DNA from: Promethearchaeota archaeon
GTDB taxonomy: Archaea; Asgardarchaeota; Lokiarchaeia; Sigyniarchaeales; SOKP01
Direction: 5' to 3'
Length of the DNA: 64,000 bases
NCBI GenBank assembly: GCA_048937405.1
Contig: JBHLNF010000002.1
Span: forward strand, 384,001-448,000
Part shown: positions 54,224 to 61,234 of the stretch, one piece after another
Position numbering within the stretch: the stretch's first letter is position 1
Layout: each line of letters opens with the position of its first letter
The notes under the pieces: generated by a model
What the model was told of the DNA's origin: nothing
Database searches by the model: none
Seen by the model: only the letters and a program-made list of their open reading frames with translations
Made by a program: the position numbers and the translations under genes

Positions 54224-54823
54224 TCATATCAGTATATTATTTCTAAAATATCTTTTGCTGATGTTATAATATAAATAGAATACTAAGAGGTAATGAATTA
54301 GTATACAAAAGATTATTCCAAAACTTAGAAACATATAGCCAAGGTATAATCCCATTAAGAAAGGATATATCAAGTTTACTAATAAAAGTGTTCTATTTTT
54401 ATATGAAAACCATGCATGGAAATGATATAATGAAAAGATTAGGCTTGAAATAAAAATAACAGACAGATCATCTAAATTTAATGAATTTATCAAGATTCCA
54501 ATTAGATAATACCTAAAAATTAATTCTTCCATAATCATTGTTAATGGTAAAAATATCAATATGATTTTTCTATTATTTCCTTCAATTAAAGCATTTGTAA
54601 CATCATGTTTCCGCATCAATTCGATATTATCCTTATTGAAAATAAAAATTTCAATAAATTTTCCTATGGTTAGAAGAATAAGTAAACCAAAGAGTAAAAA
54701 TAAAATTATAAAAAGATTAAATTCTCTGATTACAAGATATCTAACATTAAAGCCAAAAAATATTGGAATAAACAATAATATAGATACAAGAGTAATAATT
54801 GTGTATTTATTAGAGTTTTCCAA
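54224..54823 (-). CDS. CPBP (Rce1/Abi-like) intramembrane protease
   Basis: MEELIFRY, FSLYH, LIH motifs. Confidence 0.85.
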   Translation of the reverse strand: MENSNKYTIITLVSILLFIPIFFGFNVRYLVIREFNLFIILFLLFGLLILLTIGKFIEIFIFNKDNIELMRKHDVTNALIEGNNRKIILIFLPLTMIMEELIFRYYLIGILINSLNLDDLSVIFISSLIFSLYHFHAWFSYKNRTLLLVNLIYPFLMGLYLGYMFLSFGIIFCILIHYLLVFYLYYNISKRYFRNNILI

Positions 54824-54881: not shown

Positions 54882-55166
54882 TCAATTAGGATAATCATTT
54901 TTAGAGCCCATTAGAGTAGTGGTTTCTTCAATCCACTGCGATAATTCCTGATCTAATCTACAATAAGTGACTACTTTATCTATATCTTTTAATTTAGAAA
55001 AAGAACATTCAACCATAACATCCCACCCTCCATACACAGGAGTGGCATAAGTAATTTTCCAATCTTCATCTGGTTGAGTAGATTTTAAGTCTTTTAATTT
55101 TTCAACAACGCTCCATTCTGTTCCAACTGCTTTTAAACGAATCAATATGTATCCTCGATAATAAAT
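54882..55166 (-). CDS. Lrp/AsnC ligand-binding-domain protein (stand-alone), probable ATT start
   Basis: RGYILIR first strand, VYGGWDVMVE, IEETTTLM; GAGGTG SD 6 nt before ATT; in-frame TAG just upstream. Confidence 0.75.
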   Translation of the reverse strand: MYYRGYILIRLKAVGTEWSVVEKLKDLKSTQPDEDWKITYATPVYGGWDVMVECSFSKLKDIDKVVTYCRLDQELSQWIEETTTLMGSKNDYPN

Positions 55167-55370: not shown

Positions 55371-55388
55371 TTTACTCAAGTTTAAATA
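55371..55388 (+). promoter_or_regulatory. Conserved promoter element (TATA-containing) of GTPase operon copy 1
   Basis: TTTACTCAAGTTTAAATA, identical to 57502..57519. Confidence 0.7.
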
Positions 55389-55463: not shown

Positions 55464-56366
55464 ATGACAACAAAAATCACTTTTATTGGTATGCCTGAAG
55501 TAGGAAAGACAACCATTAAGAAAGTAATTTTCGATGGAGAAGATCCAAATAAATTAATTTTATTTCCTCTTGAAGCCTCTTTAAGGATTGATTATTCTGT
55601 ACATGAGTTTATGGGTTCTAAAATTGTTTTAATAGATACTCCAGGGCAAACTTTATCAGATTTATTAGAAAATGATGAAAAGCAAAAAAGAGCCTTCGAA
55701 AATGCTAATGCGATAATCTATATTTTCGATTATCCTACTTACATAAAAAATTCTGAAGCGATAATCAATGATATCAGGAATCTTTATAATGTCAATAGAA
55801 AACATGAATTTGGGGCTAAAATTATATTGTTTTTACATAAAGTCGATCTTATCCTAGCTAAAAAAATTGGTTTTAAACTTGCTATTGTCCAAAAACAAAT
55901 TAATAAATTACTAAGTTTGCCTGAGGATTTGCCTATTCATTTTACAAGCTTACATCCTAACTTAATATATACAGTTTATAATGCGTTATCAGATACAATC
56001 GGGATATTTTCAGATGAAATTTCAAGTTTAAAGAATATACTTAAAAACTTCATGAAGGAGTTATCTAAGACAATTATTTTAGTATCTAATAAAGAAGATA
56101 ACCTAATAATTCAAATATTATCTGATGATTTTGATACATCTCTTCTCTTTTCTATTTATGAAAATATTTATAGATCACGCAAATCACCAGATGATATCTT
56201 AGCTAAGAGCAGTTTAATTATGTTAGATTCCAATATATTGCATGTTGTGAAGTCAAATATCTCAACTTTGAATATAAATTTTAAAAACATGATAATAATA
56301 TCTGAAACACTAAAAATTAATGAGTTAGAAAACCTAATTGGAGAAATCAAAGAGAGAATAAATTGA
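55464..56366 (+). CDS. Rag/Gtr-like GTPase with C-terminal roadblock-like domain (copy 1)
   Basis: GMPEVGKTT, DTPGQ, Rag-type G4 HKVD, G5 TSL. Confidence 0.85.
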   Translation: MTTKITFIGMPEVGKTTIKKVIFDGEDPNKLILFPLEASLRIDYSVHEFMGSKIVLIDTPGQTLSDLLENDEKQKRAFENANAIIYIFDYPTYIKNSEAIINDIRNLYNVNRKHEFGAKIILFLHKVDLILAKKIGFKLAIVQKQINKLLSLPEDLPIHFTSLHPNLIYTVYNALSDTIGIFSDEISSLKNILKNFMKELSKTIILVSNKEDNLIIQILSDDFDTSLLFSIYENIYRSRKSPDDILAKSSLIMLDSNILHVVKSNISTLNINFKNMIIISETLKINELENLIGEIKERIN

Positions 56367-56382
56367 TTCTAAGACCATAAAT

Positions 56383-57420
56383 ATGTTACGTCAAGCTTAT
56401 ATACTTCTTAATGATGAGCTTCTATATCAAAAAAGTTATGCAAAAGGTATTGATGCTTCTTTTTTTACAAAAGTATACTCGAGAGTTAAAAAAGATTCAT
56501 TTTCTTTAAAAGGAAGTGAAATTGGTCTTTTTGAGTTTTTTGAAAGTAGAATTTCATATATAGTTGATAAAGAACTAAAATTAATTTTTCTTCTTATTGT
56601 TGGATTCTCAGATGATTTTGATGGTATTAAACTACTTCTACTCGATTTGAAGAAAAAATTTTTGAATACTTTTGGTCAGAATATTAGAAATAATGATATA
56701 TCCTTCAAAACTGAAGATATCAATCCCATTATTGATTCTATTCAAAGGAATTTCAAGGCAAAAATCTCAATAGTAGGGAGTTCAGGAGTAGGAAAAACAA
56801 CAATCGCTAGGCTAATTAAAGCTGAAGAAATTCCTATTGAACATATCCCTACTATCACTGGTAAGGTTGCAACTATTAAACTTGAAGAAACAAGTCTTTA
56901 TTTATGGGATTTTGCAGGTCAAGATGATTTTGATTATCTCTGGGAAAATTTCATGATGGGGAGTGATGCTATACTTGTAATGACAGATTCTACTCTAGAA
57001 AATATTGAAAAAAGCAAAAAATTTATAGATATTGCTAGTAAAATTACCCCTTATTCACGTATCGCAATTATTGCTAATAAACAAGACTTACCCAACGCAA
57101 TGAAAATAGAAGATATCGAAGAAAAAATGGGGCAAAAAACCTATGCTATGATTGGAATAGATCCAAATAATAGAATTAAAATCATAAGGATAATTGCAGA
57201 TCTCTTAGATATTAATCCTCAAGTATCACCACTATTAAAGCCAATGCTTGAAAGAGAACTTTTGATGCATAAAGTACAAAATGCATTAGATCAAGGGAAC
57301 CTCAATGATACCGTAGAATTTTTTGATAGAATTAGTAGAGTATGTTATGAAATTGGAGATCAAAGACAAGCCATTGAATTTAAAAGTAAAGCTGATAAGT
57401 TACGTCTTTTAGTAGATTAG
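56383..57420 (+). CDS. Longin-like + Arf-like small GTPase + C-terminal helical repeat (copy 1)
   Basis: GSSGVGKTT, IPTITG, WDFAGQ, ANKQDLP. Confidence 0.88.
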   Translation: MLRQAYILLNDELLYQKSYAKGIDASFFTKVYSRVKKDSFSLKGSEIGLFEFFESRISYIVDKELKLIFLLIVGFSDDFDGIKLLLLDLKKKFLNTFGQNIRNNDISFKTEDINPIIDSIQRNFKAKISIVGSSGVGKTTIARLIKAEEIPIEHIPTITGKVATIKLEETSLYLWDFAGQDDFDYLWENFMMGSDAILVMTDSTLENIEKSKKFIDIASKITPYSRIAIIANKQDLPNAMKIEDIEEKMGQKTYAMIGIDPNNRIKIIRIIADLLDINPQVSPLLKPMLERELLMHKVQNALDQGNLNDTVEFFDRISRVCYEIGDQRQAIEFKSKADKLRLLVD

Positions 57421-57501
57421 GTATATATTCATTTTCATAAATTTCTTTTATTATATATCCTATTGGAATTGAAAAAGATTCTCTAAATGGAAATCTATCG
57501 T

Positions 57502-57519
57502 TTTACTCAAGTTTAAATA
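57502..57519 (+). promoter_or_regulatory. Conserved promoter element of GTPase operon copy 2
   Basis: TTTACTCAAGTTTAAATA, identical to 55371..55388, at a similar distance from the ATG. Confidence 0.7.
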
Positions 57520-57598
57520 CATCAATTATTATTTGAATATAAAAAAATACTTATTTTTCCTAGTAAAAAATATAGTTATAGAAGTAAGATGCTGAATT

Positions 57599-58516
57599 AT
57601 GATAACAAAACGCGTTTCCTTGGTTGGCAAGCCTGCAGTTGGAAAGACAACAATTAAGAAAGTAATTTTTGAAGGAGAAGATCCTAATGAATTAGTTCTT
57701 TTCCCTCTCGAAGCAACAATTGGGATACAATATTCTGTGCATGAATTTATGAATATGAAAATAAGTTTAATAGATACACCTGGTCAATCCTTACCAATCC
57801 TATTACAGGATGAAGAAAAACAGATTACATCGTTTGAAAATACAGGGGCAATAATATATATTTTTGATTATCCAACCTGGATTACTGATTCTCAAGCTAT
57901 TATTGATGATATTCAAACTATATATAAAATTAATAAAAAACATAATTTTGGATCGAAAATTATTTTGTTTTTACATAAAGTTGATCTTTTAATAGATAAG
58001 AAGATTGGGAGTAGACTTGATCTTATTGGAAAACAAATATATAATCAATTAGATCTACCAGAAAAGTTTCCTATATATTTCACCAGTTTACATCCAAATT
58101 TAATTTACACAATCTATAATGCAATTTCAGATACAATTAGTAATTTTTCAGAAGATTCTTCAAGATTGAAAGAGATTTTAAAGAAATTAGTAGAAAAAAC
58201 TTCTAAAACAATATGCTTTGTTTCTAATAAAGAAGGTAACCTAATTATTCAGACTTCTAGTTTAGATTTTGATACAACTACTCTTTATTATTTATATGAA
58301 AAAATATATCACTCAATTAAAACCACAGAGCAACCTCTTTTTAACAGTAAGTTTATAAACGCAGGACCTAAATTATTATATGTGATAGTTGAGGATATTA
58401 ATAAATTTCATCCTAACTTTAAAAATCTACTATTTTTCTCCGAAGTATTGAAAGAAAATGAATTGAATACGTTAACAAATGAAGTTAAGAAAAAACTTGA
58501 GCAATTATATAATTAA
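57599..58516 (+). CDS. Rag/Gtr-like GTPase with C-terminal roadblock-like domain (copy 2)
   Basis: GKPAVGKTT, LEAT, DTPGQ, HKVD, TSL. Confidence 0.85.
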   Translation: MITKRVSLVGKPAVGKTTIKKVIFEGEDPNELVLFPLEATIGIQYSVHEFMNMKISLIDTPGQSLPILLQDEEKQITSFENTGAIIYIFDYPTWITDSQAIIDDIQTIYKINKKHNFGSKIILFLHKVDLLIDKKIGSRLDLIGKQIYNQLDLPEKFPIYFTSLHPNLIYTIYNAISDTISNFSEDSSRLKEILKKLVEKTSKTICFVSNKEGNLIIQTSSLDFDTTTLYYLYEKIYHSIKTTEQPLFNSKFINAGPKLLYVIVEDINKFHPNFKNLLFFSEVLKENELNTLTNEVKKKLEQLYN

Positions 58517-58537
58517 TATATTATTGAGAAAAAAGAG

Positions 58538-59575
58538 ATGCTAAGACAAATCTATATAATTTTAAATGACAGAATAATATATCAACGGAATTATGCTAAA
58601 GGTTTAGATGAAACTCTTTTTTCAAATGTCCTTTTAAATATCAAAAAAACGGTTTTTGCCAAATTTGCTGAAGAAACTGCATCTTATGAGTTTTTTACAT
58701 ATAAACTTTCATATATTGTAGAGAAAAGTTTGAAATTAATATTACTTTTTGTTACTGGTCTAGGAGATGATTTTAAGAATATAAAACCTCAATTACAGAA
58801 TTTTAAAAAAGAATTCATAGATTATTTTGGTGATAATTTAACTTCTGATAATCCAACAATCATCACTGATGTTCTTGATCCTATAATTGATGCCATTCAT
58901 AGAAATTTAAAACCTAAAATATCTATTGTGGGATTTTCTGGAGTAGGGAAAACTACTACTACTAAACTAATAAAATCAGAAGAAATCCCAATGCAACATA
59001 TCCCAACTATTACTGGTGAGGTTGCAACAATAAAAATTGGCAAATTACACTTCTTCCTATGGGATTTTGCAGGTCAAGATCAATTTGATTTTCTTTGGGA
59101 GAAATTTATTAAGGGAAGCGATGCTGTTCTCTTGATGACGGATTCAACATTAGAAAACCTTGAAAAAAGTAAATATTTCTTTGAATTAGTTAATAAGATA
59201 ATCCCATACGCTCGTTTAGCAGTTATTGCTAACAAACAAGATCTTCCAGAGGCAATGAAGATAGAGGATATTGAGAGATTAATGGGACAAAAAACTTATT
59301 CTATGATTGCTATTGACCCATATAATCGACCAAAAATGATTCGTATTATAGCAGATCTTTTAGATATGGATGCAAAAGTATCACCATTATTAAAACCTAT
59401 TTTTGAAAGAGATTTATTGATGGATAAAGTTCAAAATGCTTTAGAACAAGGAGAATTTAACCAAGCAGTTGAAATTTTTGAAAAAATAAGTAATTTATGT
59501 TTAGAACTGGGAGATGATTCTCTTTCAATAGAGCTCCAAGAAAAGGCAGATAAAATTAAAAGTCTATTAGGATAA
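58538..59575 (+). CDS. Longin-like + Arf-like small GTPase + C-terminal helical repeat (copy 2)
   Basis: GFSGVGKTT, IPTITG, WDFAGQ, ANKQDLP. Confidence 0.88.
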   Translation: MLRQIYIILNDRIIYQRNYAKGLDETLFSNVLLNIKKTVFAKFAEETASYEFFTYKLSYIVEKSLKLILLFVTGLGDDFKNIKPQLQNFKKEFIDYFGDNLTSDNPTIITDVLDPIIDAIHRNLKPKISIVGFSGVGKTTTTKLIKSEEIPMQHIPTITGEVATIKIGKLHFFLWDFAGQDQFDFLWEKFIKGSDAVLLMTDSTLENLEKSKYFFELVNKIIPYARLAVIANKQDLPEAMKIEDIERLMGQKTYSMIAIDPYNRPKMIRIIADLLDMDAKVSPLLKPIFERDLLMDKVQNALEQGEFNQAVEIFEKISNLCLELGDDSLSIELQEKADKIKSLLG

Positions 59576-61234
59576 TTACCATGTTCTTGTTAAATTTTGG
59601 AGAAAAACCAATACTTCATCCTTTTTAATAGGTACAATATCAGACCGAAAAACAATTTGATTTTCTTTATATAGGATTATAAACTTCATTATTACAGATT
59701 CTTCATTTTCTAAAGCTTTTTCTATATTATTTAATGTATCTTCAGCAATTTTTTCTGGTAAAACATCATAAACACTTCTTCCGATAAAATTTTCAGTAGA
59801 AGTAGCTATTTTGAAAATTTTTTCTATTTTACTATCTAATTGAGCATCTATGAAAATTCCCTCTGCAGATATTCGAAAAATCGAGAAAGGAATATGTTTC
59901 ATAAGAATTGAATTTTTAGCTTCATTTTGTAATAATTCTTCTTGATTTTTGAGTTTATCTATCGCTGTTCCTATCTCCAAAGCAATTGAAATAATTAATT
60001 CCATCTCATCAGGAGAAATCTTTTTGTTATCATTTAGAATCATATTAATTGATCCAATAATTTCAAATTTTGAAAATAGAGGGATCACCGCTCCTGAAAT
60101 TGAATTATCCCCTTTAAAAAACTGTTTTATAGCGCTTGGAAAATTCTCATTAAAGAGTGCTACTCCTTGTGAAAAAACAATTTCAAAAGGACTAGTTTTA
60201 ATATTGATATTATTATTATTTTCATAAAAGAATTGTGGAAGTCCCTTATGAGCTTTGATTGTTGCTACATTCTGCAATTTATTAACTAGATATATACAAC
60301 ATCCATTAAGGTTTAGAAAATTAATAATGGAATTTATTGTTTTGTCAAGAAGCTCAGATAAGCTAGTTGCCTGATTTGCAATACTGATAAAATTATTCAG
60401 GGTATCTATTTTCTTAGCATGTCCCTTAAGTTTCTCTTCAATTGAATAAACATCAGTAAAATCATGAAATAGATATTGAATATAAAATTCTTCTCCTAAC
60501 TTTATTTCATTTACACTGACTTCTAAATATAAAAGTGTACCTGTGGATTCCTTCTTTCTTGAAATTATTGGGGGTGGTTGTTCTAGTAAGTGATAAATCA
60601 TATTTGGATCGACTAAACCTTCATCAAATAGATCAAGTTGCAATGCTTTAATCCCAACAATTTCTTCCCTAGTCTTTTCCACTAATCTTTCAGCTTCTAA
60701 ATTCGCATCAATTATTACCCCCGTATCACGATTCATAATGAATATTGCATCTCGAGCTGCCTGAAACAAAGATTGATAACGTTGTTCGGCCATTTCTAAA
60801 GTTTTGAGTACAGGTTTGATTGATTCAAAATATGAGAAAAAGAAATTTTGAATTTCTTTTAACTTATTAGTATCAGCCTTGTGATCTTTAGGTTCATAAT
60901 CGAATGCTAGATAAGCATCGTCAAGGTTGATAAGATAATTAGCAAATCCTTTAAGAAGTCTATTAGCTAACATTAAACTTATCTGGGTTTTAATATCAGT
61001 TAATATTGTTATTAAGAAACTCTCATACCCTCCTCTAGCAAATTTATTAGGTTGTTTGAAGAATAAATTTGCAGTCTTAATTTCTTTAAAAATATGAATA
61101 AAAACACCCTTGGTTGGGAGTTCTATTAGTGATGGAATATCTTGAATGCTTTCATCTTTTAATGAATCTGGTGCTTTCAAAAAAATGCTTGGTCCATAAA
61201 GAGGATCAAAACGTACAAGCAATAATCCAATCAA
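59576..61234 (-). CDS. uDENN/longin-like + PAS + GAF + PAS sensor protein
   Basis: LVRFDPLYGP and FARGG in the N-terminal domain; AEQRYQSLFQAARDAIF..IIDANLEAE (PAS); GAVIPLFSKFEIIGSI (GAF); C-terminal PAS; no kinase domain. Confidence 0.8.
   Translation of the reverse strand: MIGLLLVRFDPLYGPSIFLKAPDSLKDESIQDIPSLIELPTKGVFIHIFKEIKTANLFFKQPNKFARGGYESFLITILTDIKTQISLMLANRLLKGFANYLINLDDAYLAFDYEPKDHKADTNKLKEIQNFFFSYFESIKPVLKTLEMAEQRYQSLFQAARDAIFIMNRDTGVIIDANLEAERLVEKTREEIVGIKALQLDLFDEGLVDPNMIYHLLEQPPPIISRKKESTGTLLYLEVSVNEIKLGEEFYIQYLFHDFTDVYSIEEKLKGHAKKIDTLNNFISIANQATSLSELLDKTINSIINFLNLNGCCIYLVNKLQNVATIKAHKGLPQFFYENNNNINIKTSPFEIVFSQGVALFNENFPSAIKQFFKGDNSISGAVIPLFSKFEIIGSINMILNDNKKISPDEMELIISIALEIGTAIDKLKNQEELLQNEAKNSILMKHIPFSIFRISAEGIFIDAQLDSKIEKIFKIATSTENFIGRSVYDVLPEKIAEDTLNNIEKALENEESVIMKFIILYKENQIVFRSDIVPIKKDEVLVFLQNLTRTW

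Follow-up and report, generated by a model that had tools for sequence, protein, structure and literature searches.

We report a tandem duplication of a two-gene operon, which encodes a Rag-like GTPase and a longin-Arf-like GTPase, in a 64,000-nucleotide stretch of DNA from a Promethearchaeota archaeon (G000:C28:384001-448000; hereafter the window, to which coordinates given without a contig refer), together with the fate of the copies in related species of the same Lokiarchaeial genus. The source genome, labelled G000, consists of 4.47 Mb in 29 contigs and has a G+C content of 27%; other genomes of the genus are coded G001, G053 and so on. The genes of the upstream copy are termed A and B, and those of the downstream copy A' and B'. 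The downstream pair is the ancestral unit. The upstream pair has had an uneven fate, A being retained in every species in which the duplication was found and B being lost repeatedly, and the lasting product of the event is possibly a second Rag-like paralogue, a candidate for pairing with the first.

Four intact open reading frames (ORFs) lie on the forward strand in the order A-B-A'-B', the tandem arrangement that a preliminary description of this DNA had proposed. A (55464..56366, +, 300 amino acids) and A' (57599..58516, +, 305 amino acids) encode GTPases of the Rag/Gtr family; B (56383..57420, +) and B' (58538..59575, +), each of 345 amino acids as described earlier, encode a longin domain, an Arf-like GTPase domain and a helical tail. 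The spacers measure 16 nt between A and B, 21 nt between A' and B' and 178 nt between B and A'. In BLASTP alignments without gaps, A is 58% identical to A' (E 3e-123) and B is 59% identical to B' (E 5e-154), a resemblance far above chance. The copied segment also carries a promoter-like element, the exact 15-mer ACTCAAGTTTAAATA, which occurs twice in the window against 0.06 occurrences expected by chance: copy 1 (55374..55388, +) lies ~75 nt 5' of the start codon of A and copy 2 (57505..57519, +) lies ~79 nt 5' of that of A'. The whole genome holds three exact copies, the third being at G000:C25:5952. Across the genus the element is conserved 5' of nearly all A and A' genes and is followed after ~20 nt by a TATAAAAA box; on the A side of the window, a second A/T box, TTATAAAAA, stands ~20 nt downstream of copy 1. 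We infer that ACTCAAGTTTAAATA is a promoter or operator, and its presence upstream of both A and A', near-unique as it is in the genome, indicates that the duplication included the regulatory region. The paralogous units are collinear, the regulatory region was copied with them and the corresponding loci of relatives are single-copy: the operon has been duplicated as a tandem segment.

To place the event, 54 genomes of the same genus were surveyed with A', B' and the neighbouring PAS-GAF-PAS protein as queries. In most of them, a single A'-type gene (59-85% identical) and, ~25 nt further on, a single B'-type gene (72-92%) lie between shared flanks that consist of a small ORF and an Rce1-like protease gene upstream and, downstream, of the PAS-GAF-PAS gene, a transglutaminase-like gene and a formyltransferase gene. 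The A'-B' pairing is older than the genus, since in metagenomic DNA a B-like gene with 56% identity to B' comes after each of the relatives of A' found there (47% and 39% identity). The single copy with the same flanks in most members of the genus, and the pairing in distant relatives, identify A'-B', not A-B, as the ancestral unit.

Among the species sampled, only six have the duplication, and in all of them the extra copy lies upstream of A'-B'. Only G000 and G053 have all four genes intact. In G051, A and A'-B' are intact and B is broken by a 1-nt deletion near codon 221, where an assembly error is possible. In G001, A is followed by a 450-bp gap that holds only pieces of B (~residues 60-84 and 273-345), in G022 by a 260-bp gap with other pieces (~residues 34-65 and 301-344) and in G041 by a 200-bp gap with no B. 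Thus A is kept in 6/6 carriers of the duplication, and B is intact in 2/6; one carrier has a frameshift in B, and three have lost B by deletion, remnants persisting in two of these. The unlike breakpoints in G001 and G022 point to separate deletions, and B is clearly dispensable in the sister species. The converse state is found in G069, where a B-like gene stands in front of A'-B' without A; a search upstream of this lone copy detected no remnant of A. Taken together, the losses of B with A kept and the B-like gene without A in G069 indicate that neither extra gene depends on the other. In three further genomes (G002, G059 and G061) the order is A'-B'-B''.

Phylogenetic trees place A in a clade of its own, on a stem of 0.3 and in a basal polytomy with the A' clades. 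B groups with the G069 copy, and a long stem (0.42+0.35) leads to them from close to the base of the B' clade of the genus. Both the A and the B clade are restricted to a subset of species. A departs from A' orthologues at 10/113 positions that are at least 95% conserved among them, and B departs from B' orthologues at 42/171 such positions. The long stems and these departures imply faster evolution of the copies, above all of B, than of the originals. Divergence between the copies is concentrated in the accessory domains (roadblock 46% identity, longin 46%, helical tail 54%) as against the G domains (65% for A/A' and 72% for B/B'), and A-B has kept all nucleotide-binding motifs. Synonymous divergence (dS) between the paralogues is 1.3-1.6 and saturated, which makes the duplication old; a recent origin can be ruled out on the same values.

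In G000, purifying selection acts on each of the four genes. The ratio of nonsynonymous to synonymous substitution (dN/dS) between G000 and G053, at a dS of 0.43-0.59, is 0.10 for A, 0.19 for B, 0.21 for A' and 0.08 for B', and for B' it stays at 0.07-0.13 across orthologue comparisons. Relaxed selection on one copy, the outcome that the preliminary description had set against its own proposal, is therefore not what is seen in G000 (0.08-0.21). In comparisons with species that lack B, the ratio for A is 0.11-0.17, with one outlier of 0.36 at a low dS of 0.20; that A is constrained where B has been lost shows A to be independent of B, and a constraint on A that depends on the presence of B is ruled out. 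As a separate observation, the dS values of adjacent genes differ several-fold in the same species pair (G001-G041, A' 0.28 vs B' 1.0; G041-G051, A' 0.19 vs B' 0.95), which suggests recombination between species inside the cassette.

A and A' match the Pfam profile Gtr1_RagA (PF04670) at 68.5 and 85.7 bits respectively, against a cut-off of 22, and so belong to that family. The motifs G1 (GxxxxGKT), G3 (DTPGQ) and G4 (HKVD) are intact in both, and both carry a TS(L/I) G5-type motif. The Rag-type HKVD, which has the form HKxD instead of NKxD, was recognised in both proteins in the preliminary description and begins at residue 125 in A and 126 in A'; H126, K127 and D129 of A' are invariant in an alignment of 47 sequences. 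The difference in switch I that had also been pointed out, LEAS in A and LEAT in A', is likewise present. It is a conservative change, with Ser found in 4/37 aligned sequences of the genus. An AlphaFold2 (AF2) model of A', with a mean predicted local distance difference test score (pLDDT) of 79.5, comprises a G domain (residues 1-181) and a domain of alpha-beta-beta-alpha-beta-beta-beta-alpha topology (185-304). Structural alignments over the full span of the model (residues 3-304) were obtained with Rag, Gtr and LokiRag chains only, at Z scores of 16-18.8, headed by LokiRagO (8YL2, Z 18.8 with 271 residues aligned), RagC (18.4), Schizosaccharomyces pombe Gtr2 (17.8) and Gtr1 (16.0). Foldseek matched the model to RagA and Gtr1 at E ~1e-13, and a PDB search with a profile of the A' family found RagA, RagC, RagD, Gtr1 and Gtr2 (E 2e-9 to 2.5e-5). 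A' is accordingly predicted to have a C-terminal roadblock domain. A roadblock-like C-terminus had been attributed to both proteins; the model of A' and its Rag-only full-length matches bear this out for A', and for A the domain is deduced from the gapless 46% identity to A' in that region.

B and B' match the Pfam Arf profile (PF00025) over residues 120-253 at 67.6 and 68.2 bits, above the cut-off of 22.3, and carry the motifs G1 (GxSGVGKT), G3 ((W)DFAGQ) and G4 (NKQD). The best PDB match is Arf1 (E 2.8e-19), and the G domain also matches structures of Arf6 and Arl1. The AF2 model of B' (mean pLDDT 79.6) is divided into an N-terminal domain (residues 1-126), the Arf-like G domain (127-277) and a tail of three helices (283-344). 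The first of these, modelled with a pLDDT of 80-94, aligns with the longin domain of VAMP7 (Z 13.3, root mean square deviation 2.7, 116 residues aligned), synbindin (Z 13.2), Sec22 and sedlin (Z 12.6), SRX (Z 11.4), Lst4 and a chain of HsGATOR1 (8fw5_B), and we regard the N-terminus of B' as a longin domain, of beta-beta-alpha-beta-beta-beta-alpha(-alpha) fold, in the predicted structure. The longin-Arf-helical architecture proposed earlier thus stands, on the Arf profile for both proteins and on the modelled longin domain and helices of B'. Searches of Pfam with the isolated accessory domains (the C-terminal part of A and A', the N-terminal part of B and B' and the helical tail) returned no significant family, so that these fold assignments depend on the predicted structures.

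Canonical Arf proteins have an N-terminal amphipathic helix, often myristoylated, which couples GTP binding to membrane binding. B and B' lack such a helix and a myristoylation site: a longin domain precedes the G domain, which begins at about residue 127, and there is no Gly2; they are therefore Arf-like G domains in another architecture and not canonical members of the Arf family. In place of the CAT-type G5 motif of Arf the sequence reads YSMIAID, and by eye an atypical G5 is plausible. Residues 135-179 of B' (window ~58940-59074), which cover the P-loop helix, switch I and the interswitch, were modelled with a pLDDT below 50, yet are near-invariant in the family alignment, and the low value may reflect a conformation that depends on nucleotide or partner. 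None of A, B, A' and B' has a CaaX-type end or a C-terminal Cys. G000 encodes three more full-length B-type paralogues, 50-54% identical to B' (C28:514639-515667, C18:200168-201199 and C10:9271-10224), two of which are longer proteins (612 and 451 amino acids). A second paralogous cassette, A2-B2, is present in G053, G045 and G066; in G000, B2 (C28:514639) stands without A2, and the sequence upstream of this orphan yielded no remnant of A.

Downstream, the stop codon of B' abuts that of a convergent gene (59576..61234, -) for a protein of 552 amino acids with PAS, GAF and PAS domains according to Pfam. The gene is found in 39/54 genomes of the genus, essentially those with A'-B', and adjoins B' at every locus examined, convergent stop to stop. 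A', B' and the PAS-GAF-PAS gene occur together in about 35-39/54 genomes and none of the three was found in 15/54; the genomes without the module may form one clade, in which case this co-occurrence may reflect few events. The PAS-GAF-PAS gene is probably part of the A'-B' module. Its product begins with a conserved domain of 150 amino acids (81% mean column identity in 8 species) and has no recognisable output domain. The N-terminal domain gave no Pfam match and no hit in the Atlas, a profile search of the PDB found nothing at E up to 10, and a longin- or folliculin-like nature finds no support in its sequence (hhalign probability 0.8% against the B-type longin profile). In two genomes the module is decaying: G016 has only a truncated sensor gene, and G023 has a truncated B' (a 209-aa ORF) and no A'. 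The G023 locus (L087, C1:544000-553000, in a single-contig genome of 2.3 Mb) retains, besides the sensor gene, three transglutaminase-like genes in tandem.

Upstream of the cassette in the window, and divergent from it, lie an ORF of 87 amino acids (54882-55145, -) and a gene for an Rce1-like membrane protein of the CAAX protease/CPBP family (54224-54823, -); this synteny is kept in G053 and G069. Elsewhere in G000, a second Rag-like locus (C7:200402-204973, -) consists of a gene for a PAS-PAS histidine kinase (568 amino acids) followed without gaps by two Rag-like genes, one for a protein of 436 amino acids (an N-terminal extension and Gtr1_RagA, 39% identical to A') and one for a protein of 515 amino acids with an N-terminal Gtr1_RagA G domain. 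Both Rag-like loci of G000 therefore adjoin PAS sensors.

Longin and roadblock platforms bind or regulate Arf-, Rag- and Ras-like GTPases, and contact between the two products of the operon was examined by co-folding A' with B'. The interface score (interaction prediction score from aligned errors, ipSAE) was 0.56 (0.00, 0.56 and 0.56 in the three runs), and the best of three controls scored 0.00; at least 18% of contacts are common to the runs, and the partner has a pLDDT of 69 or more. The mark applied to such co-folds was reached by 58/80 solved complexes and by 2/110 mismatched pairs, counts that are rough here since custom alignments were used, and the scores of 0.60 or below that reached it came from 7 of those 80 solved complexes and from both of the passing mismatches. 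The models lend weak support to binding of A' to B', which, given the prior of a conserved operon, we hold to be about evenly balanced.

The account that we favour, which as a whole we put a little short of an even chance, is as follows. In one subclade of the genus, the whole A'-B' unit with its promoter-like element was duplicated in tandem directly upstream of itself, and the durable gain would be the second Rag-like paralogue, A. Through their roadblock domains, A and A' would form pairs in the manner of RagA/C and Gtr1/2, and of the heterodimer predicted for the operonic Rag-like pair of MK-D1, replacing an ancestral A' homo-oligomer, and B', with B where it survives, would dock on this Rag-like platform through its longin domain as a partner or regulator. 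B would be a partly redundant spare, and the neighbouring PAS-GAF-PAS sensor probably supplies the input signal. An A/A' heterodimer, as a candidate pairing, fits the retention of A in 6/6 carriers and the purifying selection on A in the absence of B. Of the pairings suggested in the preliminary description, it is the A/A' heterodimer that we retain; A-B pairs, if exclusive, are contradicted by the species that retained A after losing B, as happened repeatedly, and by G069, which has the B-like gene and no A.

Several results weigh against this account. The support from the A'-B' co-fold is weak, with a score of 0.00 in one of the three runs and no interface in the output. Among the Lokiarchaeial Rag-like GTPases with solved structures, one is a homotetramer (8YL2) and the other a monomer (8ZLA, 9M28), so that the oligomeric state varies within the group and dimerisation of A with A' is not safe to assume. 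The retention of A in all six carriers may reflect shared ancestry, or causes other than heterodimerisation. Lastly, the duplication of B' by itself in G002, G059 and G061 shows that the balance of gene number at the locus is loose.

Those same homotetrameric and monomeric structures would suit an A that is an independent Rag-like paralogue, forming its own homo-oligomers in a role of its own and never a heterodimer with A', with B as a decaying by-product. The promoter-like element that A possesses, the position of the roadblock domain as the most diverged part of A (46% identity) and the repeated loss of B are all consistent with such an origin. However, with only 10/113 of the conserved A' positions changed in A, the biochemistry of the two proteins is probably very similar, and the tandem position and shared promoter-like element suggest co-regulation with A'. 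We consider this explanation unlikely, though it fares best among the alternatives.

It is also conceivable that the cassettes form two insulated parallel modules, in which each Rag-like protein works solely with the B-type protein of its own cassette (A with B, A' with B'), sub- or neofunctionalised towards, for example, another signal or site. Each cassette has its own promoter-like element, the interaction-type domains have diverged most (46-54% identity against 65-72% in the G domains), all four genes are under purifying selection in both G000 and G053, and the A'-B' co-fold, at 0.56 against 0.00 for the best control, lends weak support to a cognate pair. Against this, B is lost in 4/6 species in which A is intact and constrained (dN/dS 0.11-0.17), and in G069 a B-like copy is present and A is not. 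On these grounds we think it unlikely that A-B and A'-B' are strictly insulated pairs, and we rate the explanation rather low.

A duplication that is neutral or a matter of dosage, with extra copies that have no distinct function and are heading for loss, would account for the loss or breakage of B in 4/6 species. The module as a whole was not found in 15/54 genomes of the genus and has decayed in G023 and G016, and published work describes patchy gain and loss as the norm for the small-GTPase genes of Asgard archaea (bioRxiv 10.1101/2020.10.19.343400). The age of the copies speaks against it: at a dS of 1.3-1.6 and 58-59% identity, A and B still show a dN/dS of 0.10-0.19, and A is kept in all six species, which makes this outcome very unlikely. 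Finally, the GTPase cascade proposed in the preliminary description, in which one member controls the nucleotide state of the next, has in its favour only the co-location of four GTPase genes and the general knowledge that longin and roadblock domains are GTPase-activating protein or guanine nucleotide exchange factor (GAP or GEF) platforms in eukaryotes, and we think it highly improbable, as no result speaks for an ordered relay and the variable content of the loci (A'B', AA'B', ABA'B', BA'B' and A'B'B'') is hard to square with a fixed relay of four steps.

Eukaryotic Rags are heterodimers of two ancient paralogues, and the split between RagA and RagC predates the last eukaryotic common ancestor (LECA). 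A and A' resemble the eukaryotic Rag and Gtr proteins (RagA/B-RagC/D and Gtr1-Gtr2) in their match to Gtr1_RagA, the HKxD form of G4 and the TS(L/I) G5-type motif; the model of A', a G domain followed by a C-terminal roadblock domain, aligns along its full length with RagC, Gtr1 and Gtr2 (Z 16-18.4); and A and A', like the eukaryotic Rags, are two paralogues born by duplication. They differ from them in being only 14-20% identical to the eukaryotic proteins, in a duplication that is recent relative to the pre-LECA split, lineage-specific and independent of it, and in a setting without Ragulator, EGO or TOR, in which the partner gene encodes a longin-fused Arf-like GTPase. A stronger version of our account, in which A/A' is a young lineage-specific heterodimer of Rag type, independent of the eukaryotic RagA/C split, whose platform binds B', with the N-terminal domain of the PAS-GAF-PAS protein as its switch, we regard as doubtful and quite unlikely in that full form.

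Closer parallels exist within the phylum, where Asgard Rag-like GTPases share the architectures of A and B and LokiRagO is the best structural match to A', although A' is only 14-18% identical to LokiRagO (8YL2), LokiRagM (8ZLA/9M28) and the proteins of MK-D1. GTPase-roadblock and longin-GTPase architectures have already been published for MK-D1, in which, as a rule, GTPase genes do not share operons with roadblock or longin genes (Tran et al. 2024, PMC10933270). An operonic Rag-like pair of MK-D1 was predicted with AF2 to form a heterodimer through roadblock domains (PMC10933270); that operon joins two Rag-like genes, unlike the Rag-like and longin-Arf-like genes described here, and its counterpart in G000 is probably the C7 locus and not A-B-A'-B'. 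B and B' resemble the Arf family and the Asgard Arf-like groups (Vargova et al., bioRxiv 10.1101/2024.02.28.582541) in having Arf as their best Pfam match, in the motifs WDxxGQ and NKQD and in their matches to Arf1, Arf6 and Arl1, and differ from the Arf family in the N-terminal longin domain, the plausibly atypical G5 and the added three-helix tail. Among systems in which longin or roadblock platforms bind small GTPases (SRalpha SRX-SRbeta, MglB-MglA, and NPRL2/3 and FLCN-FNIP, which are longin GAPs of the Rags), the longin domain of B' recalls those of SRX, Lst4 and the HsGATOR1 chain; unlike these platforms it is fused in cis to its GTPase, and a GAP or GEF role would be conjecture. In the Asgard GTPase literature that was consulted, we found neither a conserved cassette of Rag-like and longin-Arf-like genes with a convergent PAS-GAF sensor, which other literature may hold, nor the tandem duplication of the cassette and its pattern of loss.

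As an evolutionary event, what we describe is real and well resolved, and ordinary, since duplication and differential loss are both known from this gene family. Its value lies in the setting. The RagA/C split is older than LECA, so that the step from a homodimer to an obligate heterodimer is not open to study in eukaryotes, and the present locus offers a natural experiment, with one-Rag, two-Rag and B-lost relatives inside a single genus of the archaeal group nearest to eukaryotes. It supplies sets of proteins for the study of paralogue pairing, of the binding of a longin-Arf-like GTPase to a Rag-like roadblock platform and of the input of a PAS-GAF sensor to GTPases. If the stronger version of our account is true, the duplication would be an Asgard replay of the assembly of the eukaryotic nutrient-sensing Rag module, with sister species that are still in the single-gene, homo-oligomeric state.

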